Part shown: one piece after another, positions 1,641-16,048 of the stretch
Numbering within the stretch: position 1 is the stretch's first letter
Layout: every line of letters starts with the position of its first letter
Virus record (IMG/VR): IMGVR_UViG_2548876955_000010
Source: a virus
Lineage: Duplodnaviria > Heunggongvirae > Uroviricota > Caudoviricetes
Length of the DNA stretch: 16,048 nucleotides
Reading direction: 5' to 3' (one strand)
Notes under the pieces: model-generated
Told to the model about the DNA's origin: nothing
Seen by the model: only the letters and a program-made list of their open reading frames with translations
Databases searched by the model: none
Translations under genes and position numbers: made by a program

Positions 1641-4112
1641 TTAAGAATCAGCCTGACTCGGGATCAGTTTTTGCCAGATAACTGAAACGTATTTTGCCTG
1701 GTAACGGGCGTCATCAAGTGCATTATGGCGCTCACCTTCGAATGGAATAGCCGTTCTGGCATCGAAGTCTATGGCTTTCCCCAGCTCAACGATTGTGCGT
1801 ACATCGCGATCGTTGTAGTAACGCCACGGGCAGGGGATCCCCTGCCGTTCGTATGAACGGCGCAAAATCGTGTTGTCGAAGTTGGCTCCATTTCCCCAGA
1901 CCTGAACAAAAAATTCACCGGAGTTTTCGTCGATAAATTCCCGCAATTGTAACAGTGCATCATCTAACGGGATTTCATCGGTCATAATGGCAGATTGCGC
2001 TTCGCGTGATTGCTTAAGCCACCATTTAATGGTGTCCCGATCAATGACTCCGCCAGCAGTTTCCAGATCGATAGTCTTACTAAATTCCGGTCCCATATCT
2101 CCGGTTTGCGGATCGAAAAATATTGCACCTATTGAGATGATCGGGGCATCAGGATTTTTTCCCATGGTTTCAAGGTCGATCATTAGATGGTCACACGTCC
2201 TGCTGGTGGATGTGATTTCGTGATGACCGTTCACCTTAATTGAGTGATCTGCCGTCTCGCCAGTTTCATTATCGCTATCGTGATGCTGATTGCCGCCAGT
2301 GTTCTCCTTGTGTGGATGTTCAGCGCCTTCCATTTCCTTCGGATCATCTTCCTGAACTTCAACCTGATACTCTTCATCGAATGTTTCCTGGTATGTTGCG
2401 TCGCCCATCACCGCGCCACAATCAGGGCAGTTGCCGCCGCCGGTCTGACCGCAGGCGGTGCAGACTTTTTCCACTTCCTGTTGCGCCACTGGTTCAGGCT
2501 GTTTCGTTTCTGGCTCGTTTTGTAACGCATTTGGGCTGTTTTGTTCCGCTTTTTGGTAGTTCCGTTCCGATTCATGCTGGTTCTGGTTCACAGAATCGCG
2601 GGTCTGGATCCCCTTAACCCATTTCGGATCATTCGGGTCACTAATCCCTTCAACAAATTCACCACGTGATGCAGCAAGCAACTTATCGGCGTCAGGCTGG
2701 CTGATATTGGCTGCCTGCATAATTTTGTTTACTTCGTCAGCGGTAACTTTTATCGGTTCTGGTTGTTCTGAATCTTCAGCGGTATCTACATTTTGCGGTA
2801 AGCCCGTGTATGTGCCATTTTTTCGGGCAAAATATTCTTCTTTAGTGATTTCAGTGGCGCCAGCAGCCAGTGCCTTATCCAGACCAGAAAGTTTGTTTGC
2901 GCGACCGTATTTTTCTCCGTCCTTATCTGCGAAGAGGAAATAGAACGGCCCCTCACGCTCTACAGATGGTTCAGCTTCCGGCGCGGTTTCATTTTTTGGG
3001 ATATCAGATACCTCAGTTTCCACTGCATCAGTTTGTGTTTCTGATGACTGGAGAACATCAACAGTGCCCAGGTCTGTTTCTTCATTCTCAAACACGCCCT
3101 TTGTCGTCAGGTATTCGCAGATATATTTGTTCAGTGCTACGGGTTCTTTGTGAATGTCGATCGGACGCTCACGGACAAGGCCAAAAATAGTTTGGCGGTC
3201 GTAGCGAAGGGCATCAGGCTGTTTGCGCATTGATGCCGAGATACGCTTCCAGTCTTCGCGGTCGTTGTCGATAACTTCTTTTTTTGCCCAGCGATGGATG
3301 CTGCCGTCAATGTTTCCGGCATCCACATCACCAGGCCAGAGAGCGTAGGCCAGTTCGTCATCCAGTGTTTTCCATGTCTGCTTGTATTCGCGATGAATGG
3401 CAGCAATGACCGGGCTGATTTTTCCTGTTGAATTTTCAGTGTACTGTTGATTGGCTCTGGTGCGGGCGAGATCAACAACAGACGTGTATTTTCCGGTTCC
3501 CTTGCGTTCACCTTCGCGACGTTTTTTCCAGATGCGCATCTCTGCCTGAATTTCGGGCCATTTAGCACCAGGAATACATTTATGCTTAACCCACCCAATG
3601 GCGTGCAACTTAAGCTCCGGATACATGGCGTTAACTTCTGGCATTTTCATCAACGCTTCAACGATATGTCCGTCGAATGTTGCCATGTCTTCCTGCAACA
3701 ATTCCTGTGCGCTAATAACCATATCAACGGTGATGTTTTCACATGTGTCGAACTTAACCATGACAGCGTTCTGTACTTCAGGGGCCAGCTTGTCAAAAGT
3801 GACGTTCATCGGATCGGATTCAGTCTCAACCGGGACAAAAGAAGCAGACTCCTCATCCCAGCGGTTTTCCTGCATATATTCAGCATCCCATGAATCGAGG
3901 GCAGGGCGGGGTATGCCAGGTTTATCCTCGCAGACAATAAATTTATAAGCGCAGTCCTGAGCAGCCGGATAATGTTCCAGGAATTGCCAGTGAAATTTTG
4001 CTCGAGCACGGCGTTCGTCGCCAGCTTCAATGGCTGTGGCTACAGCCACAGCGCCTTCTTCCCTTGTTGCCAGTTCGTCAGGAATAGCGGCGCAAATAAA
4101 GACTTTACTCAT
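1641..4112 (-). CDS. Exodeoxyribonuclease VIII-like protein (RecE/YdfE family), intact 823 aa, with C-terminal DnaQ-like DEDDh exonuclease-like region
   Basis: 823-aa ORF with GAGG RBS about 8 nt before ATG 4112. C-terminal part has MIDLETMG…H…ALDDAR-type acidic motifs typical of DEDD 3'-5' exonucleases. Cys cluster VCTACGQTGGGNCPDCG (C-x2-C-x8-C-x2-C). N-terminus resembles what I recall of the truncated K-12 Qin ydfE product. Confidence 0.85.
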   Translation of the reverse strand: MSKVFICAAIPDELATREEGAVAVATAIEAGDERRARAKFHWQFLEHYPAAQDCAYKFIVCEDKPGIPRPALDSWDAEYMQENRWDEESASFVPVETESDPMNVTFDKLAPEVQNAVMVKFDTCENITVDMVISAQELLQEDMATFDGHIVEALMKMPEVNAMYPELKLHAIGWVKHKCIPGAKWPEIQAEMRIWKKRREGERKGTGKYTSVVDLARTRANQQYTENSTGKISPVIAAIHREYKQTWKTLDDELAYALWPGDVDAGNIDGSIHRWAKKEVIDNDREDWKRISASMRKQPDALRYDRQTIFGLVRERPIDIHKEPVALNKYICEYLTTKGVFENEETDLGTVDVLQSSETQTDAVETEVSDIPKNETAPEAEPSVEREGPFYFLFADKDGEKYGRANKLSGLDKALAAGATEITKEEYFARKNGTYTGLPQNVDTAEDSEQPEPIKVTADEVNKIMQAANISQPDADKLLAASRGEFVEGISDPNDPKWVKGIQTRDSVNQNQHESERNYQKAEQNSPNALQNEPETKQPEPVAQQEVEKVCTACGQTGGGNCPDCGAVMGDATYQETFDEEYQVEVQEDDPKEMEGAEHPHKENTGGNQHHDSDNETGETADHSIKVNGHHEITSTSRTCDHLMIDLETMGKNPDAPIISIGAIFFDPQTGDMGPEFSKTIDLETAGGVIDRDTIKWWLKQSREAQSAIMTDEIPLDDALLQLREFIDENSGEFFVQVWGNGANFDNTILRRSYERQGIPCPWRYYNDRDVRTIVELGKAIDFDARTAIPFEGERHNALDDARYQAKYVSVIWQKLIPSQADS

Positions 4113-4205: not shown

Positions 4206-4397
4206 TTAAAGACCTGCCGGGATTTCGATATTATCCTGGTGAATAACTTTATCGACCGGGTAACAGTTACCGGGAATTTTCTGTTCGGTTGCTGCAGTCA
4301 TACACTCCTGCATTGTCCTGTGAACACTGACTGCAATATCAACTGGCACTCCGGAAACAAGAAAAACTGTCAGAACAAGCGCAAATGCTGAATTCAT
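4206..4397 (-). CDS. ydfD: YdfD-like small lysis protein with N-terminal hydrophobic segment (63 aa)
   Basis: Start ATG 4397 overlaps the dicB stop in an ATGA junction (translational coupling). AAGGA RBS. Hydrophobic N-terminus MNSAFALVLTVFLVSGVP. Size and position match Qin ydfD. Confidence 0.75.
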   Translation of the reverse strand: MNSAFALVLTVFLVSGVPVDIAVSVHRTMQECMTAATEQKIPGNCYPVDKVIHQDNIEIPAGL

Positions 4398-4582
4398 TGT
4401 GCACATCCTTTTGGCATCAGACGTAAACGAGCCAGCATTGAAACAATGCATATTTTATTTAATAGCTCCCGTTCTTGTTTTCTCTTGTTAATGGCATCTT
4501 CAGTAAATACAGGGTTACTGATAGTGACACCAATTTCAAAACAACCTTCAGACGTATTAACGTTTGGTAATAACGTTTTCAT
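4394..4582 (-). CDS. dicB: Cell division inhibitor DicB (62 aa; MinC-dependent division inhibitor)
   Basis: Translation MKTLLPNVNTSEGCFEIGVTISNPVFTEDAINKRKQERELLNKICIVSMLARLRLMPKGCAQ, 62 aa. GAGGA RBS 8 nt upstream. Lies immediately downstream of DicF, as in the Qin dicB operon. Confidence 0.88.
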   Translation of the reverse strand: MKTLLPNVNTSEGCFEIGVTISNPVFTEDAINKRKQERELLNKICIVSMLARLRLMPKGCAQ

Positions 4583-4751
4583 TATCGCGTCCTCAACAAT
4601 GAATTTTGTGATGCAGTGCCTGGTGCCTCCAGGTGACGTTAACCAGTTAACAATTAACGTCGGATACAGAGAATCCACCCATAACACTGTTTTTGGTTTT
4701 AACTGTTCCGCGTGCGCTTAGCCGCATTCACCGCATCACAAAATTCACTTT

Positions 4752-4809
4752 AAAAACGGCGGCAGAGCAGTCACGGAGTAAAACTGATACCGCCAAACGT
4801 CACCAGAAA
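4752..4809 (-). ncRNA. dicF: DicF small regulatory RNA (ftsZ-targeting sRNA of the dicB operon)
   Basis: Minus-strand sequence TTTCTGGTGACGTTTGGCGGTATCAGTTTTACTCCGTGACTGCTCTGCCGCCGTTTTT matches the DicF sequence as I recall it, including the GGCGG/CCGCC stem and 3' U-tract. Ends are approximate. Confidence 0.85.
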
Positions 4810-5068
4810 ATTGATAACAGAGGGCGTTGCAGCGGGGTTGTCACTTAAGCGTATGGTCAACCTGACAACCCGGTGTCATCAACGGGGAAGGAATAACCCC
4901 GCCATACTTACCGCCGCGCCATTTTGCGGGTTGCCACAACCGGAAGCGCACGGTCGAATTAAATTTAACGACACCGTACAGTGAGACGAACTTCGCCGTG
5001 CGCTTTCGTGTTGTGTGCCTGCTTTTAACCACGTCAGGCGAGGTGGTATCCTTAAAATCACCACAGTT

Positions 5069-5644
5069 TTAAGGATTCATTAAGCAATGTCGCAACCACC
5101 AATAAATCCGCTTAAGAACATGAAAATTGATTACTGGTATAAAGCGCTTACAGTTGTTGGCGCTGCGTTGTTTGTCTTTAATGGAACGTCTTTTTTTGAC
5201 AGATATCCCGTTGTTCCATTGGGTTTTTTGTCCTCCGGCATCTTTTTTATTGGTTTGGGGGAGTGGATTAATCACCCTCTCAAAGTGAGATTTATTGGTC
5301 CTGGAGTTTGGACTCGTGGATATAATCGTTCTTCGTGCGCACTCGGTATCATCTTCGACATACTTGGTTGTTTCCTGATTGTTACAGGAGTCGTCAAGTT
5401 CTTCTGATGTAAAACCGCAAATGGGGCACGTAACGGGAATTTTGAAAAGCGTTTCTCCGGGTTCCAGAACAAAATTTTCTGCGGTCTGATTTTGCTTCTC
5501 ATATTTGTGCTCCGCGTCATTGTGAGAGCACATTCTTATTCTGAGTGCCTGTTTAAACTCACTGAAGCTGAGAGCTTCTTCGCCTTCGGCAAGGCCTTCG
5601 AAGTATTCTTCGTAAGCCTTTTCCATGATTGTGTCGAAATCCAT
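5069..5644 (-). CDS. YdfB/YdfC-like protein (fused reading frame; C-terminal extent uncertain)
   Basis: Start ATG 5644 lies 2 nt after the ydfA-like stop. N-terminus MDFDTIMEKAYEEYFEGLAEGEEALSFSEFKQAL…HNDAEHKYEKQNQTAENFVLEPGETLFKIPVTCPICGF resembles YdfB followed by YdfC as one continuous frame. The distal about 65 aa are low-complexity K/R/N-rich and overlap a plus-strand membrane ORF, so the true 3' end is uncertain. Confidence 0.6.
   Translation of the reverse strand: MDFDTIMEKAYEEYFEGLAEGEEALSFSEFKQALRIRMCSHNDAEHKYEKQNQTAENFVLEPGETLFKIPVTCPICGFTSEELDDSCNNQETTKYVEDDTECARRTIISTSPNSRTNKSHFERVINPLPQTNKKDAGGQKTQWNNGISVKKRRSIKDKQRSANNCKRFIPVINFHVLKRIYWWLRHCLMNP
5087..5407 (+). CDS. Alternative call: hypothetical small membrane protein (about 3 predicted TM segments), antisense to the ydfB/C-like tail
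   Basis: 106-aa ORF with three hydrophobic stretches (ALTVVGAALFVF; LGFLSSGIFFIGLGEWI; ALGIIFDILGCFLIVTGVV). AAGGA about 12 nt upstream of the ATG. Conflicts with the minus-strand ORF; only one of the two is likely translated over this span. Confidence 0.3.
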   Translation: MSQPPINPLKNMKIDYWYKALTVVGAALFVFNGTSFFDRYPVVPLGFLSSGIFFIGLGEWINHPLKVRFIGPGVWTRGYNRSSCALGIIFDILGCFLIVTGVVKFF

Positions 5645-5645
5645 A

Positions 5646-5801
5646 TCACTCACCTGAGTTTCTTTCCAGCCAGCGACGGGCACCATTTTCGGTTTTAAAC
5701 GTTTTGCTTTTGGTATACGTCATCGCGGTGAACGTGCCGTCCTGGTTGGGGAACACGCCACATACCAGAGATTCGCTGTTGCCAAGATCGATAGTATCCA
5801 T
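5646..5801 (-). CDS. ydfA: YdfA-like small protein (51 aa)
   Basis: Internal ATG 5801 with GAGG 8 nt upstream. Translation MDTIDLGNSESLVCGVFPNQDGTFTAMTYTKSKTFKTENGARRWLERNSGE. First gene of the leftward operon downstream of the dicA-like repressor. Confidence 0.78.
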   Translation of the reverse strand: MDTIDLGNSESLVCGVFPNQDGTFTAMTYTKSKTFKTENGARRWLERNSGE

Positions 5802-5882
5802 GCTGACCTCATTTCCCCTTAACGCCGGGGTAGCGGAACTGTTTGCTGAGAACACCGTGCGGTGTCTTGATGGAGGTAATTT

Positions 5883-5936
5883 AGTTTTCTCATTATTTTT
5901 CGTCAAGGTTTTTTGATGAGAAAACTCAAGTATTGG
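5883..5936. promoter_or_regulatory. Putative DicA operator copies / leftward dicB-operon promoter region
   Basis: Palindromic element TGAGAAAACTCA at 5917..5928, within a 19-mer GAGAAAACTCAAGTATTGG (5918..5936) nearly repeated at 6454..6471. An inverted partial copy AGTTTTCTCAT at 5883..5893. Located between the dicA-like stop and the ydfA-like start. Confidence 0.5.
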
Positions 5937-5993
5937 CGCAAGATAAAGCCAATACATTGAAATGTAAGGCTTTAAAATTTTGTGAAGGGATGA

Positions 5994-6401
5994 TTATTGA
6001 TGCTTGTTGCGTTTGCGAGCCTCTAATAGCTCGGTGAACAGGCGATTAAAATTCTCAACGCGGGCGCGGAGTTCGCTGAGTTGTGCTTGTTGCTCTGATT
6101 TAGGAAGTGCGCGATACAAACGCAGCATCTCTAACTCATCTTCCGATAAGTCTAAGGCACTATCGAGTGAAACAGGGGGAGCTGGTGTTTTGTCCTCGTC
6201 GCCAAACAGTATCCAGGTTGGTGAACATTGCAATACCTCGGCGAGGCGATGCAAATTTTGCCCGCGCGGGGCTGTATGGTCACTTTCCCATAATGAAATT
6301 GATGAGCCAGATACGCCAGCAGCTTTGCTTAAACCGTTTTGACTTAAGCCTACCTGCTTACGTCTTTCTCTAATGCGTTGACCTAAAGTTTTCTCGTTCA
6401 T
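5994..6401 (-). CDS. dicA: DicA-like XRE-family HTH repressor (135 aa), prophage immunity repressor analogue
   Basis: Start at internal ATG 6401 (MNEKTLGQRIRERRKQVGLSQNGLSKAAGVS… HTH motif). Conserved …VLQCSPTWILFGDEDK… segment characteristic of DicA as I recall it. Divergent from the Cro-like gene. Confidence 0.85.
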   Translation of the reverse strand: MNEKTLGQRIRERRKQVGLSQNGLSKAAGVSGSSISLWESDHTAPRGQNLHRLAEVLQCSPTWILFGDEDKTPAPPVSLDSALDLSEDELEMLRLYRALPKSEQQAQLSELRARVENFNRLFTELLEARKRNKHQ

Positions 6402-6478
6402 ATTTAGATATCTTAATAACCCTTGACTTGAGATTCCTTGAGTGATTAGCATTGAGAAAACTCAATATTGGAGGTGCG
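6402..6478. promoter_or_regulatory. Divergent dicA/dicC promoter-operator region with perfect palindrome ATTGAGAAAACTCAAT
   Basis: 77-bp intergenic region. 16-bp perfect palindrome at 6451..6466. TTGACT -35-like hexamer at 6423..6428 with TAGCAT -10-like about 18 bp downstream. GGAGGT SD at 6470..6475 for dicC. Confidence 0.6.
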
Positions 6479-6706
6479 ATGTTTAAATCAGACGTAATTA
6501 ATTTTTACGGTACGAAAGCCAAAGTAGCGAAAGCTGCTGGCGTTGACCCATCTGCTGTTTCTCAATGGCAAGAGCTGGTTCCTGAAGGTCGCGCGATGCG
6601 TCTACAGGAGGCATCTGGCGGCGAGCTTCTGTATGATCCCAAGGTTTATGACGAATATCGTAAGACGAAGCGGGCGGGGCGGTTGAACAATGAAAATCAC
6701 TCCTGA
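6479..6706 (+). CDS. dicC: DicC-like Cro-type regulator (75 aa)
   Basis: ATG 6479 with GGAGGT RBS. Translation MFKSDVINFYGTKAKVAKAAGVDPSAVSQWQELVPEGRAMRLQEASGGELLYDPKVYDEYRKTKRAGRLNNENHS; the C-terminal half matches what I recall of DicC. The track ORF starts upstream at 6452 but lacks an RBS there. Confidence 0.85.
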   Translation: MFKSDVINFYGTKAKVAKAAGVDPSAVSQWQELVPEGRAMRLQEASGGELLYDPKVYDEYRKTKRAGRLNNENHS

Positions 6707-7211
6707 ACAGGCTCGTGAGGCTCTGGATGCCTGGATATGTCGACCAGGAATGACACAGGAGCAGGCGACGATATTAATCACTGAAGCATTCTGGGCTTTG
6801 AAAGAGCGCCCGAACATCGATGTTCAGCGTGTCACATATGAAGGTGGCGCGGTTGATCAGCGAGCGCTTAGCGTTAATCGAGTGAAGATATTCGAACGCT
6901 GGAAGGCTATCGACACCAGGGATAAGCGTGAAAAGTTCACAGCGCTAGTGCCTGCAATTATGGAGGCTATCCGGATTAGTGATTTCAGGTTGTATCGTGA
7001 GATCAGTGATGGAAAAAGTATTACGTACATGATCGCCGGGTTAAATAAAGAATATGGCGATGTGGTGGAATCCGGACTGCTTTTTGCAGATCCTGCCGTT
7101 GTAGATCGTGAAACTGACGAACTTATAGAAAAAGCAATTGCTTTCAAGCTTGCGTATCGACAGCAATACCAACAAAAAGCTGGATGGAATTATGAGTCTT
7201 CTTTTTGCTGA
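6690..7211 (+). CDS. CII-like / YdaT-family regulator (putative)
   Basis: 173-aa ORF overlapping the dicC stop by 17 nt, in the position where lambdoid phages carry cII. Family assignment is by position and size only; no diagnostic motif confirmed. Confidence 0.65.
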   Translation: MKITPEQAREALDAWICRPGMTQEQATILITEAFWALKERPNIDVQRVTYEGGAVDQRALSVNRVKIFERWKAIDTRDKREKFTALVPAIMEAIRISDFRLYREISDGKSITYMIAGLNKEYGDVVESGLLFADPAVVDRETDELIEKAIAFKLAYRQQYQQKAGWNYESSFC

Positions 7212-8157
7212 ACGCCCACTGGTTATAAACACGCAGCTGGCAATGAAAATCGGCTTAAACGAAGCCATTGTTTTGCAACAACTGCACTACTGGTTGAGAG
7301 ATACCAACTCCGGTATGGAATGTGATGGTGTTCGCTGGATTTATAACACAACGGAACAATGGCTGGAACAGTTCCCATTCTGGTCAGAGTCAACGTTAAA
7401 GCGCGCGTTTGCAAGTCTGAAAACGCTGGGGCTTTTGCGTTGTGAAAAGCTCAATAAATCAAAGCGCGATATGACCAATTTCTACACGATCAACTATGGG
7501 AGCGAGCTTTTAGATGGTGGCAAATTGAACGAATCCATCGGTTCAAAATGCGCCGCTCCATCAGGTCAAAATGACACGATGGAAGAGGTCAAAATGAAAC
7601 GCTCCATTGGTTCAAAACGACCCAATGTCATCGGGTCAAAATGGCCTGATGATCTTACAGAGAATACAACAGAGATTACTACAGAGAATAAAAACACTTT
7701 TCGTCCGGAAGCTTCGCAACCGGACCCGCAGACGACTGAACAGGATTTTTTAACCCGGAACCCCGACGCGGTTGTGTTTAGTGTGAAAAAACGCCAGTGG
7801 GGTAGCAGGGAGGATTTGGCGTGTGCGCAGTGGATTTGGGGGCGGATCGTGAACCTTTACGAACAGGCTGCCAGCGACGATGGAGAGATCATGCGACCAA
7901 AAGAGCCTAACTGGACAGCCTGGGCCAATGACGTGCGCACAATGCGGATGCTGGATGGCAGAAGCCACAGACAAATTTGCGAAATGTTTGGTCGGGTACA
8001 GCGGGATCCATTCTGGGTAAAAAACATCATGAGCCCGTCAAAACTCCGCGAAAAATGGGACGAACTGGTCATCCGCCTGGGACGTTCACCTGTACAGCGT
8101 TGTGTGAATCATATTTCTGAACCGGATACAGAAATTCCGCCTGGTTTCAGGGGATAA
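7192..8157 (+). CDS. Phage replication initiation protein (replisome organizer) with DnaT-like C-terminal domain
   Basis: ATG 7192 (MSLLFAERPLVINTQLAMKIGLNEAIVLQQLHYWL…). C-terminus …VNHISEPDTEIPPGFRG closely resembles the C-terminal end of primosomal protein DnaT (…SEPDSQIPPGFRG, from memory). Contains an internal iteron array (see repeat feature). Confidence 0.85.
   Translation: MSLLFAERPLVINTQLAMKIGLNEAIVLQQLHYWLRDTNSGMECDGVRWIYNTTEQWLEQFPFWSESTLKRAFASLKTLGLLRCEKLNKSKRDMTNFYTINYGSELLDGGKLNESIGSKCAAPSGQNDTMEEVKMKRSIGSKRPNVIGSKWPDDLTENTTEITTENKNTFRPEASQPDPQTTEQDFLTRNPDAVVFSVKKRQWGSREDLACAQWIWGRIVNLYEQAASDDGEIMRPKEPNWTAWANDVRTMRMLDGRSHRQICEMFGRVQRDPFWVKNIMSPSKLREKWDELVIRLGRSPVQRCVNHISEPDTEIPPGFRG
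7539..7643. repeat. Iteron-like direct repeats (5 copies of GG(T)TCAAAA(T/C)G, about 23-24 bp spacing) inside the replication gene; candidate phage origin
   Basis: Copies start at about 7540, 7564, 7587, 7609 and 7634, encoding the repeated IGSK/GQN peptide motif. Followed by an A-rich stretch with repeated ACAGAGAATA (about 7660..7700). Analogous to ori-lambda iterons inside the O gene. Confidence 0.6.
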
Positions 8158-8898: not shown

Positions 8899-11496
8899 AT
8901 GACACCTATAGAAAAAATCGCAAATTGGTCTAAAAATAAACCTGTCTGGTGGCGGCACTCGCTACGTCTTGCATTAAATAATGGAACATTGGAGCAAGAC
9001 GATTTCAATGAAATATTTAAGTTAGCTTGCATGGAGCATGGTTTGTTGGAGAAAAACGCACATTTTTCTGAATGTGAAAAACCGATAGATTTTACTGGCT
9101 ATGCTGCTGAACTACATGAGGTATCATTAAAATCAATTTATGACGTAAAAGGCGTTGGGATACTGGCAGAAAACCAAAAGCTCAATTTTTCTAACAATGG
9201 CCTGTTTATCGTTTATGGTGATAATGGCGCCGGAAAATCAAGCTATGCAAGCATTTTAAAAAATGCATGCTTAACCCGAGGGGATAGCCCTGCAATTATT
9301 GGGAATGTCTTTTCCAAACTGAACTTACCTCCTCAAGCAAAACTCGCTGTTTCATGTAATGGTGTGGATGAAATTCATTCATGGAATCAACAAGTATCAA
9401 GCATTGAATCATTAAAGTCTATTCGTATATTTGACAGTTCATCTGCAAGCCATTACGTAAACAAAGAAGATGCTCTGGGTTTTAAACCTGTTGGACTAAA
9501 TTTACTTACTGAGTTGGTTCGTGCCATCGGAAGTGTTAATGCTTTTATTAATGAAGATACTATGCCCGGAAATGGTCTTACTACATTGATGAAGCTACAG
9601 TCAGGCAGCGTTACCGCTAGCTTTGCCAACAATCTTTCGGCAAATACTTTTGAAGGAGACGTCGATAATCATATTGCTACTGAAGCTGACTTACAACGAA
9701 TAGAAAGTTTGAGAAGAGAAATAAATCAATACAAGTCCCAGACGGCTGAAACGATAAAAAGTGCGTTGGAACAGAATAAGAGAACCCTTTCTCCACTTAA
9801 AAGTTTTTGTGATAGTTCAATTAAATTATTAGGTAATAATGCTGTTTTAGAACTAACAAAGCTACAGGCCGAACAAGAACGAACACAACATGTTTCTGAA
9901 GAACTACGTAAAGCTACATTACAAAATCTACCTTTAGATACAGTTGCAGGTCTTAGCTGGCAGAATTTATGGAAAGCAGCTAAAAACTTTATTGAACAGG
10001 AAACACGAAAGCAAAATTTCCCGATGCAAAAAGGAGAGCCTTGCCCGCTTTGTTTGCAAGAGATTGGCTTGGAAAGTGAAAGCAGATTGGCTGCATTAGC
10101 ACAGTATTTAAGTGACGAAACGGCGCAGTCAGCAAAAATCGCAAAGTACAATGTTGATAATGCATTAAAATTATTGTCCTCACATTCTCTCGAGCTAACC
10201 CCTTACATTGCAGCTATTGAATTTCTTAATGATAAGCACCCACCTCTGGGTGATGACGTCAAAATGATGTTTGCGCTCCTAGCGGAAAGAAAGGGAAATA
10301 TGTTATTAGGTAATGTTGAAGATACACATGCTGCATTGAATACTGAATGTGTAAATCAGTTTAATAAAATCATTGAGGGTCTCGATCAAAGTATACTCAG
10401 TGTTAATTCGGATGCGGATTTTTTGCTGTTAATAAAAAGGGAAGAGATGGAGTTAGCACGACTGGAAGATATGAAATATGTGTTGGATAATAAATCCAAT
10501 ATTATTTCTAACATCAGGCGTCTCAAAATTATTAAAAAATTTGAAAATTTGCAGTCACAATGCGGAACAACATCAATTTCAACTTTGTCTTCTCAGATAA
10601 GTCGTTCTGGTGTTGTTGAGCCGTTGATTTCAGCATTTAGCGAGGAACTGCGTAATTTTGGTTTTGAACGCTTCAAAGTGAAAGTTGATACCCGAAATCG
10701 TTCTGGTGAGCAGCAGTTTAAATTATCATTGGCTGATGAAGATGATGTGACTATTGCTACACTCGGAGTTGCAAGTGAGGGGGAACAACGATGTATTGCT
10801 ATTGCCAGTTTCCTTGCCGAAATGAAGGCTGATGCAAGAAAGTCGGCCGTTATATTTGATGATCCAGTTAACTCATTAAGTCATGAGTGGAGCAGCCGGG
10901 TTGCAAGACGCCTAGCCTTAGAATCGAAAAATAGACAGGTTATTGTCTTAACTCATAATATAGTTTTTTACAAACTACTGCTGGAAGTCGCTGAAGAGAT
11001 AAATGCAGAATGCTCCTGTATTGCTCTTGAACGCTCCCGTAAACTTGCAGGCTTAGTCAGGGAGTCAGCCCCTTGGGAAGCAATGACTACGCGAAGCAGA
11101 TACAAAGAACTTAAAGTTAAACTACAAGAGCTTAAACGATTAGATAAAAGGGATGAGACAACAGTTGCTGAGTTTCGTTTGGCATCTTGTCAGTTTTACG
11201 GATTTCTACGCGAGGCTTGGGAAAGGCTTGTTGAAGAGAAGCTTCTTAATAAAGTAGTGACTCGTTTTGAAAGAGGCATCTCTACTCAGCGATTAGCTCG
11301 ATTAAAAGATATCAATCAGGATGATCTTGATAAGATTGATCGTGGAATGTCTAAATGTAGCACTTATTTTAGAGGGCATGATAGCGCGCCTGCTGTCGGT
11401 GATCCTTATCCAATGATTGCTGAAATAGAGCAGGATTTAGATGCGATTAACATATTCTTAACCGAGCTTGAGAGCCCTTCCAGAAAAAGAAATTAA
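8899..11496 (+). CDS. Large P-loop ATPase (ABC/AAA_13-like) with coiled-coil CxxC insertion and distinct C-terminal domain; candidate RloC/PrrC-like abortive-infection / anticodon-nuclease protein
   Basis: 865-aa ORF with AAGGA RBS 6 nt before ATG 8899. Walker A GDNGAGKS (nt 9217..9240). Walker B-like AVIFDDP (nt 10846..10866) followed by VLTHN. More than 500 aa between the two motifs, K/E/Q-rich with CPLC (nt 10042..10053). C-terminal about 170 aa contain LREAWE and YFRGHDS. Gene and flanks are visibly AT-rich relative to neighbouring prophage genes. Function is inference. Confidence 0.85.
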   Translation: MTPIEKIANWSKNKPVWWRHSLRLALNNGTLEQDDFNEIFKLACMEHGLLEKNAHFSECEKPIDFTGYAAELHEVSLKSIYDVKGVGILAENQKLNFSNNGLFIVYGDNGAGKSSYASILKNACLTRGDSPAIIGNVFSKLNLPPQAKLAVSCNGVDEIHSWNQQVSSIESLKSIRIFDSSSASHYVNKEDALGFKPVGLNLLTELVRAIGSVNAFINEDTMPGNGLTTLMKLQSGSVTASFANNLSANTFEGDVDNHIATEADLQRIESLRREINQYKSQTAETIKSALEQNKRTLSPLKSFCDSSIKLLGNNAVLELTKLQAEQERTQHVSEELRKATLQNLPLDTVAGLSWQNLWKAAKNFIEQETRKQNFPMQKGEPCPLCLQEIGLESESRLAALAQYLSDETAQSAKIAKYNVDNALKLLSSHSLELTPYIAAIEFLNDKHPPLGDDVKMMFALLAERKGNMLLGNVEDTHAALNTECVNQFNKIIEGLDQSILSVNSDADFLLLIKREEMELARLEDMKYVLDNKSNIISNIRRLKIIKKFENLQSQCGTTSISTLSSQISRSGVVEPLISAFSEELRNFGFERFKVKVDTRNRSGEQQFKLSLADEDDVTIATLGVASEGEQRCIAIASFLAEMKADARKSAVIFDDPVNSLSHEWSSRVARRLALESKNRQVIVLTHNIVFYKLLLEVAEEINAECSCIALERSRKLAGLVRESAPWEAMTTRSRYKELKVKLQELKRLDKRDETTVAEFRLASCQFYGFLREAWERLVEEKLLNKVVTRFERGISTQRLARLKDINQDDLDKIDRGMSKCSTYFRGHDSAPAVGDPYPMIAEIEQDLDAINIFLTELESPSRKRN

Positions 11497-11540: not shown

Positions 11541-11811
11541 ACTTTATGTAAGTATTCTAGGAAATCGCTCCATTACCTTTTGAAGTCCCTTGCAACCTAG
11601 CTAACACAACTTCCGCTCCTCGCTCAAAGCGGACTGGAAGGTTAGCTTGCGTCGGACTTTGCGTATTAAAAGAAGTGCTGGTGGTGACTGGTGGTTGAGC
11701 CCCATTTCCACAGAAAAATCAGAGAAACCATACCCAATAGTTGTATTGAATCACGGACGAGACAGCCTCATATTTATCAGGGCTGGTGTACGTCCAATAC
11801 AGGAGGTTGTG

Positions 11812-11901
11812 GTGCTGGTTCTCAAATGTGCGCTGGCTATTACGGCTGTAATGGCGATTTATTGTCTTGCTATTGTTCTTATGGATCGCCTTTCTGACTG
11901 A
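11812..11901 (+). CDS. Candidate 29-aa hydrophobic small peptide (type I toxin-like or leader peptide)
   Basis: Consensus SD AGGAGG (11801..11806) 5 nt before GTG 11812. Translation (M)LVLKCALAITAVMAIYCLAIVLMDRLSD is a single TM-like helix. Lies about 210 nt upstream of mok/hok. Not matched to a known family from memory. Confidence 0.35.
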   Translation: MLVLKCALAITAVMAIYCLAIVLMDRLSD

Positions 11902-12055
11902 TTTCATATTGGCGAGGTAAAGGTAGTTAAGTAGAATGGCTGCGGGTGCTTGAGGCTATCTGCCTCGGGCATGAACACCAAAGGCAGATAGAGAAAAGCC
12001 CCAGTTAACATTACGCGTCCTGCAAGACGCTTAATATTAATCTGAGGCCAATTTC

Positions 12056-12268
12056 ATGCTAGACACATGTAGGTTAGCCTCTTACGTGCCGGAAGGCAAG
12101 GAGAAGCAGGCTATGAAGCAGCAAAAGGCGATGTTAATCGCCCTGATCGTCATCTGTTTAACCGTCATAGTGACGGCACTGGTAACGAGGAAAGACCTCT
12201 GCGAGGTACGAATCCGAACCGGCCAGACGGAGGTCGCTGTCTTCACAGCTTACGAACCTGAGGAGTAA
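12056..12268 (+). CDS. Mok-like overlapping frame (N-terminally extended Hok, MokC-type)
   Basis: In-frame upstream ATG at 12056 gives MLDTCRLASYVPEGKEKQA + Hok; this resembles the MokC/HokC arrangement. Confidence 0.45.
   Translation: MLDTCRLASYVPEGKEKQAMKQQKAMLIALIVICLTVIVTALVTRKDLCEVRIRTGQTEVAVFTAYEPEE
12113..12268 (+). CDS. hok: Hok/Gef-family type I toxin (51 aa membrane peptide)
   Basis: MKQQKAMLIALIVICLTVIVTALVTRKDLCEVRIRTGQTEVAVFTAYEPEE carries the Hok/Gef signature (LIVIC…LVTRKDLCEV…GQTEVA…AYE). Which hok paralogue it is cannot be resolved. Confidence 0.88.
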   Translation: MKQQKAMLIALIVICLTVIVTALVTRKDLCEVRIRTGQTEVAVFTAYEPEE

Positions 12269-12484: not shown

Positions 12485-12736
12485 ATGATGAACATCGAAG
12501 AACTGCGTAAAATTTTTTGTGAAGATGGCCTCTATGCTGTGTGCGTTGAAAATGGAAATCTTGTTAGTCATTACCGCATTATGTGTTTGCGAAAGAATGG
12601 GGCTGCGTTAATTAATTTTGTGGATGGTCGAGTGACAGACGGATTTATCTTGCGCGAAGGTGAGTTTGTCACTTCATTACAGGCACTGAAAGAGATCGGA
12701 ATAAAAGCAGGCTTTTCAGCTTTTGCAGAAGAATAA
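12485..12736 (+). CDS. rem: Rem-like hypothetical protein (83 aa)
   Basis: 83-aa ORF with AAGGA RBS. Position between hok and ydfU-like and length match Qin rem; the sequence itself is not independently recognised. Confidence 0.65.
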   Translation: MMNIEELRKIFCEDGLYAVCVENGNLVSHYRIMCLRKNGAALINFVDGRVTDGFILREGEFVTSLQALKEIGIKAGFSAFAEE

Positions 12737-12802: not shown

Positions 12803-13081
12803 ATGGCACGCAACGTAAAATATTACAATTCTGATAATTCGCCCGTTCTTGCCTGCACGCACGGGCGGTATTCTCACGCATTCAAGTCTGAATGGTTCCA
12901 GCACCCTCCATGCACTGCAGAACAGGCCGAATGGCTGATTCATTCTTACCGCAGGCGCGGGTTCGAGGTTAAGAAAGCTCTCAGTCTCGACTATCGGCAC
13001 TGGATAATCTCTGTCAGGCTGCCTTATTCCGAACGCCCACCACGTGCGTCCCGCACTTTCCAGCAACGGATCTGGAGGTAA
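12803..13081 (+). CDS. Hypothetical protein (92 aa)
   Basis: GGAG about 9 nt upstream of ATG 12803. Stop TAA is 1 nt before the GTG start of the next gene (coupled). Confidence 0.6.
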   Translation: MARNVKYYNSDNSPVLACTHGRYSHAFKSEWFQHPPCTAEQAEWLIHSYRRRGFEVKKALSLDYRHWIISVRLPYSERPPRASRTFQQRIWR

Positions 13082-13082
13082 C

Positions 13083-14132
13083 GTGCGGGTATTACTTAGA
13101 CCTGTTCTGGTGCCTGAGCTTGGGCTGGTGGTCCTTAAGCCGGGCCGTGAATCCATACAGATATTTCATAATCCTCGAGTGCTGGTGGAACCGGAACCAA
13201 AAAGCATGCGTAATCTGCCATCCGGAGTCGTTCCTGCCGTTCGCCAGCCGCTGGCGGAAGACAAAACATTGCTACCGTTTTTTAGTAACGAACGGGTGAT
13301 TCGTGCTGCTGGCGGCGTTGGCGCATTGTCTGACTGGCTATTACGTCATGTTACATCCTGCCAGTGGCCTAATGGCGATTACCATCACACTGAAACAGTC
13401 ATTCACCGTTATGGTACCGGCGCAATGGTGTTGTGCTGGCACTGCGACAACCAACTGCGTGACCAGACATCGGAATCACTGGAGCTGCTTGCTCAACAAA
13501 ATCTGACAGCATGGGTGATTGACGTCATCCGTCACGCAATAAGCGGTACGCAGGAGCGGGAATTATCTTTGGCTGAATTATCCTGGTGGGCGGTCTGCAA
13601 TCAGGTGGTGGATGCACTACCTGAGGCTGTATCGCGTCGTTCGCTGGGATTACCAGCGGAAAAAATCTGCTCGGTGTACCGCGAAAGCGACATCGTACCG
13701 GGAGAGCAGACCGCCACCAGCATATTGAAACAACGCACAAAAAATCTTGCACCGTTGCCTTACGCCCACCAGCAACAAAACCCATCACAGGAAAAGACGG
13801 TGGTAAGCATCAACGTTGATCCAGAGTCTCCGGAATCTTTCATGAAGCTGCCTAAACGTCGCCGCTGGGTTAAGGAGAAATACACTCGTTGGGTTAAGAC
13901 ACAGCCGTGTGCTTGCTGCGGTATGCCAGCCGACGATCCGCATCATCTGATTGGTCACGGGCAGGGCGGAATGGGAACAAAAGCACATGATCTCTTTGTG
14001 TTGCCTTTGTGCAGAAAGCATCACAACGAGCTGCATACGGATACAGTGGCATTTGAAGAGAAGTATGGCTCCCAACTGGAGCTGATATTTCGTTTTATCG
14101 ATCGCGCGCTGGCAATTGGCGTACTGGCGTAA
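13083..14132 (+). CDS. ydfU: YdfU-like protein (DUF968-type), 349 aa, with C-terminal Cys/His cluster
   Basis: GTG start at 13083 preceded by GGAGG (13074..13078); the track ORF extends upstream to 13044 without an RBS. C-terminal CACCGMP…HHLIGHGQGG…CRKHHNELH motif. Length equals Qin YdfU (349 aa). Confidence 0.8.
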   Translation: MRVLLRPVLVPELGLVVLKPGRESIQIFHNPRVLVEPEPKSMRNLPSGVVPAVRQPLAEDKTLLPFFSNERVIRAAGGVGALSDWLLRHVTSCQWPNGDYHHTETVIHRYGTGAMVLCWHCDNQLRDQTSESLELLAQQNLTAWVIDVIRHAISGTQERELSLAELSWWAVCNQVVDALPEAVSRRSLGLPAEKICSVYRESDIVPGEQTATSILKQRTKNLAPLPYAHQQQNPSQEKTVVSINVDPESPESFMKLPKRRRWVKEKYTRWVKTQPCACCGMPADDPHHLIGHGQGGMGTKAHDLFVLPLCRKHHNELHTDTVAFEEKYGSQLELIFRFIDRALAIGVLA

Positions 14133-14145
14133 GTGGAGAACGAGC

Positions 14146-14898
14146 ATGAACCTTGAAGCCTTACCAAAATATTACTCCCCAAAATCTCCAAAATTGAGCG
14201 ATGACGCTCCAGCGACAGGCACCGGTTGTTTAACAATTACGGATGTAATGGCAGCGCAGGGGATGGTGCAGTCGAAAGCACCACTTGGGTTGGCCTTATT
14301 TCTGGCAAAAGTTGGTGTTCAGGACGCTCAGTTTGCGATTGAAGGCCTGCTAAATTACGCGATGGCACTGGATAACCCGACATTGAACAAATTGAGTGAA
14401 GAAATCCGGTTACAGATTATTCCTTACCTCGTGAATTTTGCCTTTGCTGATTACTCCAGGTCTGCGGCAAGTAAGGCTCGCTGTGAGCATTGTTCAGGTA
14501 CGGGATTTTATAATGTATTGCGCGAAGTGGTGAAACACTACAGACGCGGGGAATCTGTAATCAAGGAAGAATGGGTGAAGGAACTATGTCAGCATTGCCA
14601 TGGTAAGGGCGAAGTCAGCACAGCGTGCAGAGGGTGTAAGGGTAAAGGGATTGTTCTGGATGAAAAAAGAACCCGGTTTCATGGCGTACCGGTATATAAG
14701 ATTTGTGGGCGTTGTAATGGAAACCGGTTTAGTCGTTTACCGACCACGCTGGCACGACGTCATGTCCAGAAGCTGGTACCAGACCTGACCGATTATCAGT
14801 GGTATAAGGGGTATGCGGACGTCATTGGTAAACTGGTAACAAAGTGCTGGCAGGAAGAAGCATACGCGGAAGCGCAATTGAGGAAGGTGACGAGATAA
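14146..14898 (+). CDS. quuQ: Late-gene antiterminator Q homologue (QuuQ-like, 250 aa) with four CxxC zinc-finger-like motifs
   Basis: ATG 14146 with GGAGA RBS. Four CxxC motifs (CEHCSGTG, CQHCHGKG, CRGCKGKG, CGRCNGN), the first three CxxCxGxG. Followed by a strong promoter and terminator. Position after ydfU as in Qin. Confidence 0.82.
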   Translation: MNLEALPKYYSPKSPKLSDDAPATGTGCLTITDVMAAQGMVQSKAPLGLALFLAKVGVQDAQFAIEGLLNYAMALDNPTLNKLSEEIRLQIIPYLVNFAFADYSRSAASKARCEHCSGTGFYNVLREVVKHYRRGESVIKEEWVKELCQHCHGKGEVSTACRGCKGKGIVLDEKRTRFHGVPVYKICGRCNGNRFSRLPTTLARRHVQKLVPDLTDYQWYKGYADVIGKLVTKCWQEEAYAEAQLRKVTR

Positions 14899-15532: not shown

Positions 15533-15832
15533 AAAAATTCCTTAATACTGATAACTTGGCGCACTATACACACGTTCCTGAAGAAAGCTATAGTTTTTTG
15601 ATGGGGTTGAAGATGGCTGGATGTCTAAAATAAACATTGCTTCATATGTTCAACTATGCGTTAATGATTGCGTCGGTTTGAAGAACAGACGATATACGAA
15701 GTAGTTTACTAAAGCAGTTCTCATTTCAGGTGTTATTCACTTATTCCTTCTTTGAGTCTCTCCAATTAAGTACGAAGTCGTTTCTGTTATGCAAACCATT
15801 TATGCCGAAAGGCTCAAGTTAAGGAATGTAGA

Positions 15833-16048
15833 ATGTCAAATAAAATGACTGGTTTAGTAAAATGGTTTAACGCTGATAAAGGTTTCGGCTTTATTTCTCC
15901 TGTTGATGGTAGTAAAGATGTGTTTGTGCATTTTTCTGCGATTCAGAATGATAATTATCGAACCTTATTTGAAGGTCAAAAGGTTACCTTCTCTATAGAG
16001 AGTGGTGCTAAAGGTCCTGCAGCAGCAAATGTCATCATTACTGATTAA
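15833..16048 (+). CDS. cspB: Cold-shock protein CspB-like (71 aa)
   Basis: [71 protein letters not shown] with RNP1-like KGFGFI and RNP2-like VFVHF motifs. Long 5' leader (about 300 nt) typical of csp genes. Stop TAA at 16046..16048. Confidence 0.9.

Follow-up and report, generated by a model that had tools for sequence, protein, structure and literature searches.

The DNA analysed here (the window, all 16,048 nucleotides of the Caudoviricetes record IMGVR_UViG_2548876955_000010) carries a dicA-like repressor gene with short repeated elements on both sides, and the question is whether these elements are the operators of its immunity region and, if so, of which specificity. An earlier note on this DNA had read them as DicA-like operators serving both the immunity switch and the leftward dicB/dicF operon. 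That reading is favored by their overlap with promoters, their occupation of the same positions as in Escherichia coli K-12 and the K-12 precedent, and we infer that the repressor binds them. With a probability of about 0.85, the elements are operators of a heteroimmune DicA/DicC-type (Qin/mEp460-type) lambdoid immunity region. The layout is of a familiar, unremarkable kind; the operator sequence appears to be a previously unlisted specificity variant, and a full-text literature search with the operator strings found no paper.

The repressor gene (5994..6401, minus strand) encodes a protein of 135 residues with 55% identity to K-12 DicA. It contains a Pfam HTH_3 domain (2e-15, residues 10–64), corresponding to a P22 C2-like N-terminal helix-turn-helix (HTH), and no other Pfam domain; in particular, no S24 peptidase/autocleavage domain was found by Pfam, and the protein ends at residue 135. 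The C-terminal half is short and conserved (LQCSPTW...LPESE...NFNxLFxELL is invariant), and the protein aligns full-length with K-12 DicA. A 152-residue reading frame starting at 6452 was rejected, as its upstream ATG is absent in loci L004 and L006 and homologues begin with MNEK or MNEM, which supports the 135-residue gene. The divergent dicC/cro-like gene (6479..6706, plus strand) encodes 75 residues that match Pfam P22_Cro (PF14549, 3e-16). The leftward operon that would be regulated (4394..5801, minus strand) consists of ydfA (5646–5801, Pfam DUF1391), a ydfB/C-like ORF (5069–5644), the DicF sRNA (4757–4808, Rfam, 72.5 bits) and dicB (4394–4582), whose product is identical to K-12 DicB at 62 of 62 residues. 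The dicA-like, dicC-like, ydfA and dicB/dicF assignments of the earlier note are thus in agreement with Pfam, the Rfam DicF match and the K-12 identities. A homologue of the Rem antirepressor (12485..12736, plus strand; 79 of 82 residues, 96%, identical to K-12 Rem) is likely the inducer that inactivates the repressor. Another ORF, 11647–11901, was considered as rem and discarded, being unannotated in E. coli genomes and matching no family.

A promoter scan of 5700–6600 returned only two sigma-70-like promoters, both overlapped by the repeated sites. The predicted leftward, dicBp-like (PL-equivalent) promoter (5878..5906, minus strand) has TTGACG (5906..5901), a 17-nt spacer and TAAATT (5883..5878), with a predicted start at ~5871, at a conserved CATCAAG. 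Its assignment is based on consensus and homology: the hexamers align with K-12 TTGACC-17-TAATCT and are kept in population variants, and the same simple scan run on K-12 did not call the dicBp hexamers. The predicted rightward, dicC/cro-like (PR-equivalent) promoter (6423..6452, plus strand) has TTGACT, an 18-nt spacer and TAGCAT, with its start predicted at ~6459, inside an operator site. The K-12 equivalent, TTGACT-17-TATCTT, is in the homologous place, and natural variants of the −10 (TAGCAT, TAGTAT, TACTAT, TAACAT and TACCAT) differ at positions 3–4 only.

Three strong sites with the core TTGAG-WWWW-CTCAA are located at 6451–6466, 5915–5930 and 5879–5894. The first, described in the earlier note as a perfect 16-bp palindrome, was correctly placed, but it is not perfect: ATTGAGAAAACTCAAT has the reverse complement ATTGAGTTTTCTCAAT and is self-complementary at 12 of 16 positions, with 6-bp arms (ATTGAG/CTCAAT) around an asymmetric, non-palindromic AAAA. 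This site (6451..6466, core 6452–6465, ATTGAG-AAAA-CTCAAT) is the putative equivalent of the K-12 operator Oc, as suggested by its repetition, conservation and position. On the rightward promoter, it reaches from the final −10 bases across the predicted +1, with the cro Shine-Dalgarno GGAGG following 4 nt after its end. The two putative leftward operators are proposed from repetition and conservation. The distal one (5915..5930, minus strand CTTGAG-TTTT-CTCATC) stops 8 nt short of the dicBp-like −35, on its upstream side. The proximal one (5879..5894, minus strand AATGAG-AAAA-CTAAAT) fills the spacer and extends into the −10 TAAATT, and the degeneracy of its right half is due to these bases also serving as the −10. 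The centres of the leftward sites are 36 bp apart.

All repeat coordinates given in the earlier note agree with the sequence. Its near-identical 19-mer is indeed present in two direct copies, 5918..5936 (GAGAAAACTCAAGTATTGG) and 6454..6471 (GAGAAAACTCAA-TATTGG), with 18 of 19 positions matching and one indel. The TATTGG tail, however, was rejected as part of the operator, since it varies freely among relatives: beside Oc, CCAATA is changed to CCAGTA, CCAGCA, CCAACA or CCAAAG, and beside the distal site GCGCCAATAC is changed to GCATTAAATA. The inverted copy is also exact (5916..5926, reverse-complemented, equals 5883..5893) and extends to 17 nt at 88% (5877–5893/5916–5932); it had been called partial, but is instead a full 16-bp site (5879–5894) fused to the −10.

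Conservation of the sites was assessed in a population set of 82 loci, representing 50 haplotypes of the immunity type of the window. The 14-bp Oc core is invariant in all 50, with variation at the three bases on either side; the distal site is nearly invariant and the proximal site conserved. On average, 0.14 haplotypes differ per column in the three cores, versus 1.32 in the other intergenic columns. When the cores are compared with all other spacer columns for the proportion that vary, Fisher's test reaches only p = 0.07, since conservation extends to the leader and terminator. Two Buttiauxella prophages, whose repressors are 76% and 74% identical to that of the window, retain the three sites at unchanged offsets although the spacers have otherwise diverged; the Oc site is identical in one of them (L004), the distal site reads ATTGAGTTTTCTCAAT / ACTGAGTTTTCTCAAT, and the proximal site is conserved, ending CTAAAT(T)/CTAATC as in every immunity type. 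Different palindromes occupy the same three positions in five further immunity types with this gene context, drawn from genome contigs and E. coli genomes; a scan of viral contigs by repressor alignment yielded near-identical loci only and no further types. The matrix of cross-matches between Oc and downstream regions is block-diagonal, with 13–16 of 16 positions matching within the window group, and 8–12 of 16 between window-group Oc and the downstream regions of other types or in the reverse direction. The site sequences are therefore swapped together with the repressor and the Cro HTH. The immunity type of the window is found in 796 of 5426 (~15%) complete E. coli genomes, and the region is 99.8% identical in mEp460_ev081, a functional temperate phage.

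The dicA-dicC immunity region of K-12 Qin was reportedly described by Bejar et al. in 1988. The dicA-dicC spacer is 77 bp in the window (6402–6478) versus 83 bp in K-12, and the Oc palindrome starts at −65 from the dicA ATG versus −67/−69 in K-12 and eight other loci. In K-12, Oc (TTGTTAGTCATAACTAACAA) lies after the dicC −10 and before the RBS, the dicBp −35 TTGACC has TTAG..CTAA palindromes on both sides, and the positional equivalent of the distal site 5915..5930 is ATGTTAGCTATAGCATAC. The alignment to the K-12 dicA-dicC and dicBp operators suggested by the earlier note thus gave the same positions but not the same sequence: the 16-mer of the window Oc matches K-12 downstream DNA at 9 of 16 positions only, the reverse comparison also gives 9 of 16, and the alignment shows no operator identity. 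The locus appears to share K-12 architecture and not K-12 specificity, and would be heteroimmune. It is a mosaic with K-12 in which the flanks are 97–100% identical, whereas the segment from 5873 to ~6585 is only 23–87% identical (30-nt blocks, mostly 50–70%). This swapped segment comprises exactly both operator sets, dicA and the HTH end of dicC, with the dicC-like gene being K-12-like from ~6585 on. DicA of K-12 occupies Oc in vivo, an interaction lost upon single base changes, while Om and Oa show no in vivo DicA binding (Yun et al. 2012, PMC3441716; Oc, Om and Oa as defined there and in PMC10448788).

A weaker third site, missed by the earlier note, is next to the dicA start (6402..6417; plus strand ATTTAGATATCTTAAT, repressor strand ATTAAG-ATAT-CTAAAT), with two mismatches to TTGAGWWWWCTCAA. 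Directly adjacent to the dicA ATG, it coincides in part with the likely promoter of dicA and its near-leaderless start; the palindrome is at −16 from the ATG here, and the K-12 ATTTAGCATTAGCTAACT at −18. No variation was seen in any haplotype, in Buttiauxella or in C. braakii. With low confidence, it may be a third operator, equivalent to Oa. Additionally, CTTGAG at 6426 and 6437 (6426..6442), between the −35 and −10 of the cro-side promoter, could be auxiliary half-sites at the position of K-12 Om. This assignment is also of low confidence: read by eye, the element has three mismatches to the consensus, and Buttiauxella keeps it partly (CCTGAG...CTTGCG). Both weaker sites may lack function, because K-12 Om and Oa are not bound by DicA in vivo (PMC3441716). 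A fourth copy of a 9-mer, GAGAAAACT at 6387–6395, was rejected as a coding coincidence, since it falls in dicA codons 3–5 (N-E-K-T) and Buttiauxella has ATGAATGAAATGACG.

Similarity arising by chance in A+T-rich intergenic DNA, or left as a relic of the recombination that swaps modules, is extremely improbable as an explanation of these repeats. The left mosaic joint (~5873) does adjoin the proximal site, and a looser 12-mer search (up to 2 mismatches) shows no enrichment over the whole window (4 matches versus 2.4 expected). The inverted-repeat shuffle test in the leftward spacer has a null inflated by self-palindromes. For TTGAGWWWWCTCAA, also with up to 2 mismatches, there are 4 matches in the window versus 1.07 expected, all inside the two spacers, for a pattern built from three of them. 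The argument for non-random repeats is carried instead by the exact-word test and the conservation data. The exact ungapped repeat is the 13-mer TGAGAAAACTCAA (5917–5929 and 6453–6465); 13 nt is the longest exact word common to both intergenic regions (77 and 192 bp, either strand), and a common word of at least 13 nt was reached by only 3 of 5000 dinucleotide-preserving shuffles of the two regions. All three occurrences of the 10-mer TGAGAAAACT in the 16-kb window (both strands) are within the spacers flanking dicA. Against chance or a relic are also the cores that stay invariant amid variable flanks in the 50 haplotypes, the retention of the sites in Buttiauxella, the palindromes that every other immunity type has of its own at the same positions, and the location of the sites inside the swapped module rather than in the flanks common with K-12.

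The repeats could be genuine and still have another role. The leftward pair (5877–5893/5916–5932) might form an RNA hairpin in dicA read-through transcripts, acting as a terminator, insulator or processing site. The toxic dicB operon would have to be shielded from dicA by a terminator, and minus-strand RNA of 5874–5935 folds at −11.2 kcal/mol (z = −4.2; z = −5.2 for the entire 3' region). Palindromic operator copies can always pair, however, so that the leftward fold is an automatic by-product; its stem is A/U-rich with the −35 hexamer in the loop and no U-tract after it, and the terminator scan of 5700–6600 was negative here. Four independent single-arm changes are uncompensated (L088 TTGAGCTTTCTCAT, L089/L093 TTGAGTTTTATCAT, L091 ATGATAAAACT and L033), and the copy at 6451–6466 has no pairing partner and sits in the cro-side promoter. 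A likelier dicA terminator, which would insulate the dicB operon from dicA read-through, is a separate, better conserved hairpin (5944..5974, minus strand; UAAAGCC.UACAU-UUCA-AUGUA..GGCUUUA, then UCUUG) that folds at −11.3 kcal/mol (z = −4.1), is unchanged in the 50 haplotypes and has a clear terminator as its homologue in E. whittamii (L013); the simple scan of 5700–6600 passed no site, this hairpin included. In the window, the TATTGG extension can pair with its 3' arm. A regulatory RNA hairpin in place of the leftward operators is thus very unlikely. Binding of the sites by the Cro-like DicC or a host factor, for example YjdC, a reported repressor of DicA targets in K-12, instead of the DicA-like repressor, is also quite unlikely. 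Repressor and Cro share operators in lambdoid switches, which counts against this reading, and a host factor would need one motif across immunity types, whereas the palindromes change with the repressor and Cro HTH. The K-12 ChIP-seq sites, one on each side of dicA, are those of DicC (PMC11430063), and DicA binding is recorded for Oc only (PMC3441716); but deletion of dicA in K-12 derepresses dicBp 22-fold, and deletion of dicC does not (Ragunathan et al. 2023, PMC10448788).

If the sites are operators of the DicA-like repressor, a dimer of the 135-residue protein would read the 14–16-bp (A/C)TTGAG-WWWW-CTCAA(T) through its P22 C2-like HTH. On the rightward side, the one strong site (6451–6466) would cover the −10/+1 of the promoter that serves the cro-like gene and, behind it, the early genes (ydaT/cII-like and O-like replication). 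On the leftward side, 5915–5930 and 5879–5894 would bracket the −35 of the promoter for ydfA-dicF-dicB, then exo-xis-int, with binding that may be cooperative. Bound repressor would bar RNA polymerase from both promoters and so silence the lytic genes together with the division inhibitors DicB and DicF. The Cro-like DicC would use the same sites, and the weak 6402–6417 over the dicA start, to turn dicA off, such that the repressor and the Cro-like protein would form a bistable switch. Induction is expected to proceed via Rem (12485–12736), because the repressor lacks an autocleavage domain; K-12 Rem relieves the repression of dicBp by DicA (PMC10448788).

On this reading, the consensus TTGAG-WWWW-CTCAA would mark the switch that silences dicB, dicF and lytic genes in ~15% of E. 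coli genomes and in the functional infant-gut phage mEp460_ev081; heteroimmunity with K-12 Qin is predicted. The general picture of how such switches work is unchanged, but the locus offers a natural comparison of how P22 C2/DicA-type HTH proteins shift their DNA specificity. More tentatively, and with the odds against it, Qin/mEp460-type modules may constitute a specificity-swap series, in which swappable recognition-helix/operator cassettes are carried on a constant chassis of promoter spacing, the repressor C-terminal half and Rem (96% identical between window and K-12). In such a series, G32/S33/L37, versus H/V/Q in K-12 DicA and N/V/Q in P22 C2, would set TTGAG versus TTAG(T/A) or TTAAG, and one antirepressor would co-induce heteroimmune prophages via the conserved C-terminal half of their repressors. 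The orientation of the A4/T4 centre relative to transcription is the same in the window type and both Buttiauxella loci; this centre may be subject to indirect readout and could set repressor binding apart from Cro binding.

Compared with known systems, the locus most resembles K-12 Qin in organization. Both have the order ydfA, dicA, divergent dicC and a ydaT-type gene, with dicF and dicB downstream (DicB 100% and Rem 96% identical), a 135-residue repressor architecture, a single strong inverted repeat in the −10-to-RBS interval of dicC, and two sites that bracket the −35 of the dicA-ydfA promoter. They differ in operator geometry, TTGAG-N4-CTCAA (6-4-6) versus TTGTTAGT-CATA-ACTAACAA (8-4-8) in K-12, and in the recognition helix, SGSSISLWES versus SHVSVSQWER, the repressors being 55% identical. 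The Cro N-terminal HTH is not the K-12 one, and the window type is that of an intact functional phage (mEp460_ev081), whereas K-12 Qin is a cryptic remnant.

The closest solved homologue of the repressor is the N-terminal domain of P22 C2 (1adr, 2r1j and 3jxb), which has been solved on operator DNA; a phmmer search of the PDB aligned residues 1–72 without gaps (1adr, 8.3e-16; 2r1j, 4e-15). P22 operators, roughly ATTTAAG-N4-CTTAAAT, have a half-site + 4 bp + half-site organization like the sites here, and the half-sites differ by one base (TTAAG in P22, TTGAG here). In helix 3, P22 C2 N32/V33/Q37 correspond to G32/S33/L37 here and H/V/Q in K-12 DicA. P22 C2 is a protein of 216 residues with a RecA-sensitive C-terminal domain, which the 135-residue repressor lacks, and P22 has three OR operators, while one strong cro-side site is evident here.

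As in lambda, repressor and cro genes are divergent, operators overlie PR-like and PL-like promoters that flank the repressor gene, its mRNA is probably near-leaderless, and the promoter of that gene may be overlain by a weak operator. The two are unrelated in sequence, however, and two leftward sites and one strong rightward site are found here versus three and three in lambda; the leftward centres are 36 bp apart and flank the −35, and induction is expected by antirepressor rather than by RecA cleavage. Salmonella Gifsy prophages, whose antirepressors are LexA-controlled, are similar in this last respect, having short repressors without an autocleavage site that are inactivated by a small antirepressor (cited in PMC10448788), but their repressor and operator sequences are unlike those described here.

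The window spans a lambdoid prophage's left arm together with the early region. The minus strand encodes an integrase (2–1297), an excisionase (1317–1565), an exonuclease (1641–4112), dicB (4394–4582; 62/62 residues identical to K-12), DicF RNA (4757–4808; Rfam, 72.5 bits), ydfA (5646–5801; DUF1391) and a 135-residue HTH_3 repressor (5994–6401). The plus strand carries a P22_Cro-type gene (6479–6706), a ydaT/cII-like gene (6690–7211), an O-like replication gene (7138–8157), rem (12485–12736), a DUF968 gene (13044–14132) and the Q antiterminator (14116–14898). Over the immunity region, identity is 99.8% to phage HannyBb and to mEp460_ev081, a functional temperate phage with homologues of dicB, dicF, dicAC and rem (PMC10448788). 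Of 5426 complete E. coli genomes, 796 contain a match over at least 80% of 5600–6750.

After ydfA, in the place taken in K-12 by the small genes ydfB and ydfC, a 191-residue ORF (5069–5644, minus strand) resembles the YdfB-type family in its first ~34 residues only and matches PHROG 35040 (function unknown) over its full length. An 865-residue AAA_13/AAA_21 ATPase between the ren-like gene and hok/sok (8899–11496, plus strand) shows a full-length match (E = 0) to PDC-S06, a candidate defence family in PADLOC, and is probably an anti-phage moron. The sok antisense RNA with a hok/gef toxin gene (11944–12268, plus strand) and a cspA-type thermoregulator 5′ UTR truncated by the window end (15672–16048, plus strand) are ordinary cargo in Qin-like prophages. 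Repressors 100% identical to that of the window occur on short contigs of MAGs labelled Bacillota and Veillonella parvula (L002, L003), probably through binning contamination.

A consensus scan of 5700–6600 identified exactly two sigma-70-like promoters, one leftward (minus strand; TTGACG 5906–5901, 17 nt, TAAATT 5883–5878) and one rightward (plus strand; TTGACT 6423–6428, 18 nt, TAGCAT 6447–6452). The hexamer assignments are supported by natural variants, which keep them: the cro-side −10 changes at positions 3–4 only (TAGCAT, TAGTAT, TACTAT, TAACAT, TACCAT), and the leftward −35 is TTGACG, TTGACC or CTGACG only. Three related inverted repeats overlap these two promoter-like elements. The rightward site (6451–6466) starts within the −10 and spans the predicted start (~6459); the proximal leftward site (5879–5894) occupies the promoter spacer and overlaps the −10, and the distal leftward site (5915–5930) lies 8 nt beyond the −35 on the upstream side. 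The leftward sites are 36 bp apart, centre to centre.

The coordinates that an earlier note had assigned to these repeats all match the sequence. Its perfect 16-bp palindrome at 6451–6466 is instead an inverted repeat with 6-bp arms flanking an asymmetric AAAA: ATTGAGAAAACTCAAT, with reverse complement ATTGAGTTTTCTCAAT, is self-complementary at 12 of 16 positions. The near-identical 19-mer holds as a 13-mer, TGAGAAAACTCAA, exact and ungapped in both spacers (5917–5929 and 6453–6465); its TATTGG end is joined via one indel and is not conserved in the same-type loci compared. The inverted partial copy at 5883–5893 is indeed the exact reverse complement of 5916–5926, and the longer match spans 17 nt at 88%.

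Chance similarity of the repeats is excluded by a shuffle test and by haplotype conservation. A 13-nt word common to the 77-bp spacer between the repressor and cro-like genes (6402–6478) and the 192-bp spacer between ydfA and the repressor gene was reached in only 3 of 5000 dinucleotide-preserving shuffles. All three occurrences of the 10-mer TGAGAAAACT in the 16-kb window (both strands) lie inside these spacers, as do all four matches to TTGAGWWWWCTCAA with at most two mismatches (1.07 expected window-wide); a looser 12-mer search showed no enrichment in the window. Within the immunity type, sampled as 82 loci representing 50 distinct 683-nt haplotypes, the sites are selectively conserved. 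The 14-bp rightward core is invariant in 50/50 haplotypes, and each of the three bases on either side differs from the window in 2 to at least 9. The leftward cores show singleton or doubleton changes only, and the linkers between them are strongly variable. Differing haplotypes per column average 0.14 in the cores versus 1.32 in other intergenic columns. A cruder test of variable versus invariant columns reached only p = 0.07, since conservation extends to the operon leader and the dicA terminator.

The two leftward sites could also form an RNA hairpin, which folds well (z = −4.2); however, this fold follows automatically from two palindromic operators, lacks a U-tract and has the −35 within the loop, and four natural changes affect one arm without compensation in the other. 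The likelier dicA terminator is a separate conserved hairpin (5944–5974, minus strand; UAAAGCC.UACAU-UUCA-AUGUA..GGCUUUA, then UCUUG), located ~20 nt past the dicA stop, which folds at −11.3 kcal/mol (z = −4.1), does not vary in the 50 haplotypes and is homologous to a clear terminator of E. whittamii; it likely insulates the toxic dicB operon. A competing pairing in the window involves GUAUUGGC/GCCAAUAC (5930–5955). Binding of the sites by a host factor would leave the type-specific palindromes unexplained.

The ydfA-dicF-dicB leader (5802–5872, minus strand) is kept in all immunity types and in other genera. It contains CATCAAG at the predicted start, a 5′ hairpin ACACCGCACGGTGT (5852–5865), then GTTCCGCT and a hairpin CCCCGGCGTTAAGGGG (5815–5830), an arrangement loosely like boxA/boxB nut sites. 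The alignment fold includes a few compensatory pairs, and a whole-window scan placed no Rfam family at gathering score in the leader.

Residues 1–72 of the repressor align without gaps to the N-terminal domain of P22 C2 (1adr, 8e-16; same domain in 2r1j and 3jxb, which are complexes with operator DNA). At C2 positions 32, 33 and 37, presumably base-contacting in the C2-operator structures, the window has G/S/L, compared with N/V/Q in P22 C2 and H/V/Q in K-12 DicA. Leu for Gln at position 37 is common to the TTGAG-operator types (window type, Buttiauxella and C. braakii), which is suggestive, but not proof, of covariation between this residue and the operators. A domain search found no peptidase domain in the repressor, and RecA-type induction is therefore not expected. 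The Rem homologue (12485–12736, plus strand) is 96% identical to K-12 Rem, although identity between the repressor and K-12 DicA is only 55%. Rem, if acting here, probably has the repressor's conserved C-terminal half as its target, and heteroimmune prophages could then be induced alike.

Promoter overlap, conservation and K-12 positions support the reading that DicA-like operators control the immunity switch and the leftward dicB/dicF operon. Repressor dimers on the three sites would keep RNA polymerase off both the cro-side and the dicB-side promoter, the Cro-like protein would act through the same sites to shut off dicA, and Rem would inactivate the repressor. Weaker candidate operators include 6402–6417 (repressor strand ATTAAG-ATAT-CTAAAT; two core mismatches), which adjoins the dicA ATG at the position of K-12 Oa, and CTTGAG half-sites at 6426 and 6437, which correspond to K-12 Om. 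Confidence in them is low because DicA did not bind Om or Oa in K-12 (PMC3441716); any function they have is more likely as targets of Cro. The 6402–6417 site overlaps a −10-like TAAGAT (by eye, TAGAAT or TAGCAT in other types), so that the dicA mRNA would be near-leaderless.

Repressors of Buttiauxella ferragutiae and B. gaviniae are 76% and 74% identical to that of the window, with recognition helix SDSSISLWES. The two species keep ATTGAGTTTTCTCAAT or CCTGAGTTTTCTCAAT at the position of K-12 Oc in otherwise diverged spacers, and ATTGAGTTTTCTCAAT or ACTGAG..., plus CTTGAGAAAACTAACC or ATTGAGAAAACTAAAT, around the leftward −35. At these same positions, the other immunity types carry palindromes of their own: TGTTAGT-CATA/CATG-ACTAACA (K-12, Citrobacter NCU1), TGTTAGA-CTTT-TCTAACA (ATCC 25922 type), CTTAGA-TTTT-CCTAAG (AZ146 type), TGTTGAG-TTTA-TTTAACA (C. 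braakii), TGTT(A/T)GA...CTAACA variants (Symbiopectobacterium, Yersinia, Rosenbergiella) and TAAC-TTTTG-TTA (E. whittamii, LSJC7). The ydfA...ydaT E. coli context is common to the window, K-12 and the ATCC 25922 and AZ146 types. When 13 loci were scanned for palindromes, 10 had their best inverted repeat −65 to −69 from the ATG of the repressor gene. Comparison of each Oc 16-mer with every downstream region gave a block-diagonal matrix, with scores of 13–16/16 within the window group versus 8–12/16 when its Oc was set against the downstream regions of other types, and likewise in the opposite comparison. The proximal leftward site of every type finishes in CTAAAT(T) or CTAATC, the −10; in the window its right half is CTAAA rather than CTCAA because the site end doubles as the −10.

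No paper in the full-text collection searched contains the operator sequence, which is apparently undescribed. The architecture is known, and the feature is of low to moderate interest; the comparisons support its assignment to the DicA/DicC immunity family, as the operators of a heteroimmune member. Identity to K-12 is 97–100% up to 5869 and from ~6590 on, versus 23–87% per 30-nt block in between (mostly 50–70%). The window is a mosaic with K-12 Qin, with joints at 5873 and ~6585. The swapped cassette extends from the leftward −10 to codon ~33–37 of the cro-like gene and contains dicA with the operators on either side, the leftward promoter and the part of the cro-like gene that encodes the N-terminal HTH; the low-identity block therefore comprises exactly the specificity determinants, the sites being replaced together with the repressor and Cro HTH. 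In K-12, Oc (TTGTTAGTTATGACTAACAA, plus strand, L001) lies between the −10 of the dicC promoter (TTGACT-17-TATCTT) and the dicC RBS, and palindromes ATGTTAGCTATAGCATAC and ATGTTAGTCATGGCTAATC flank TTGACC downstream of dicA. In vivo, K-12 DicA binds Oc, and binding is lost when single bases are changed (PMC3441716); dicBp rises 22-fold on deletion of dicA, and repression is relieved by Rem (PMC10448788). The K-12 motif is a TT(A/C/T)G...C(G/A/T)AA palindrome (PMC11430063). Alignment with the K-12 dicA-dicC and dicB-promoter operators, which the earlier note had proposed, places the window sites at the same three positions with a different sequence, and they are positionally equivalent to the experimentally supported sites of K-12.
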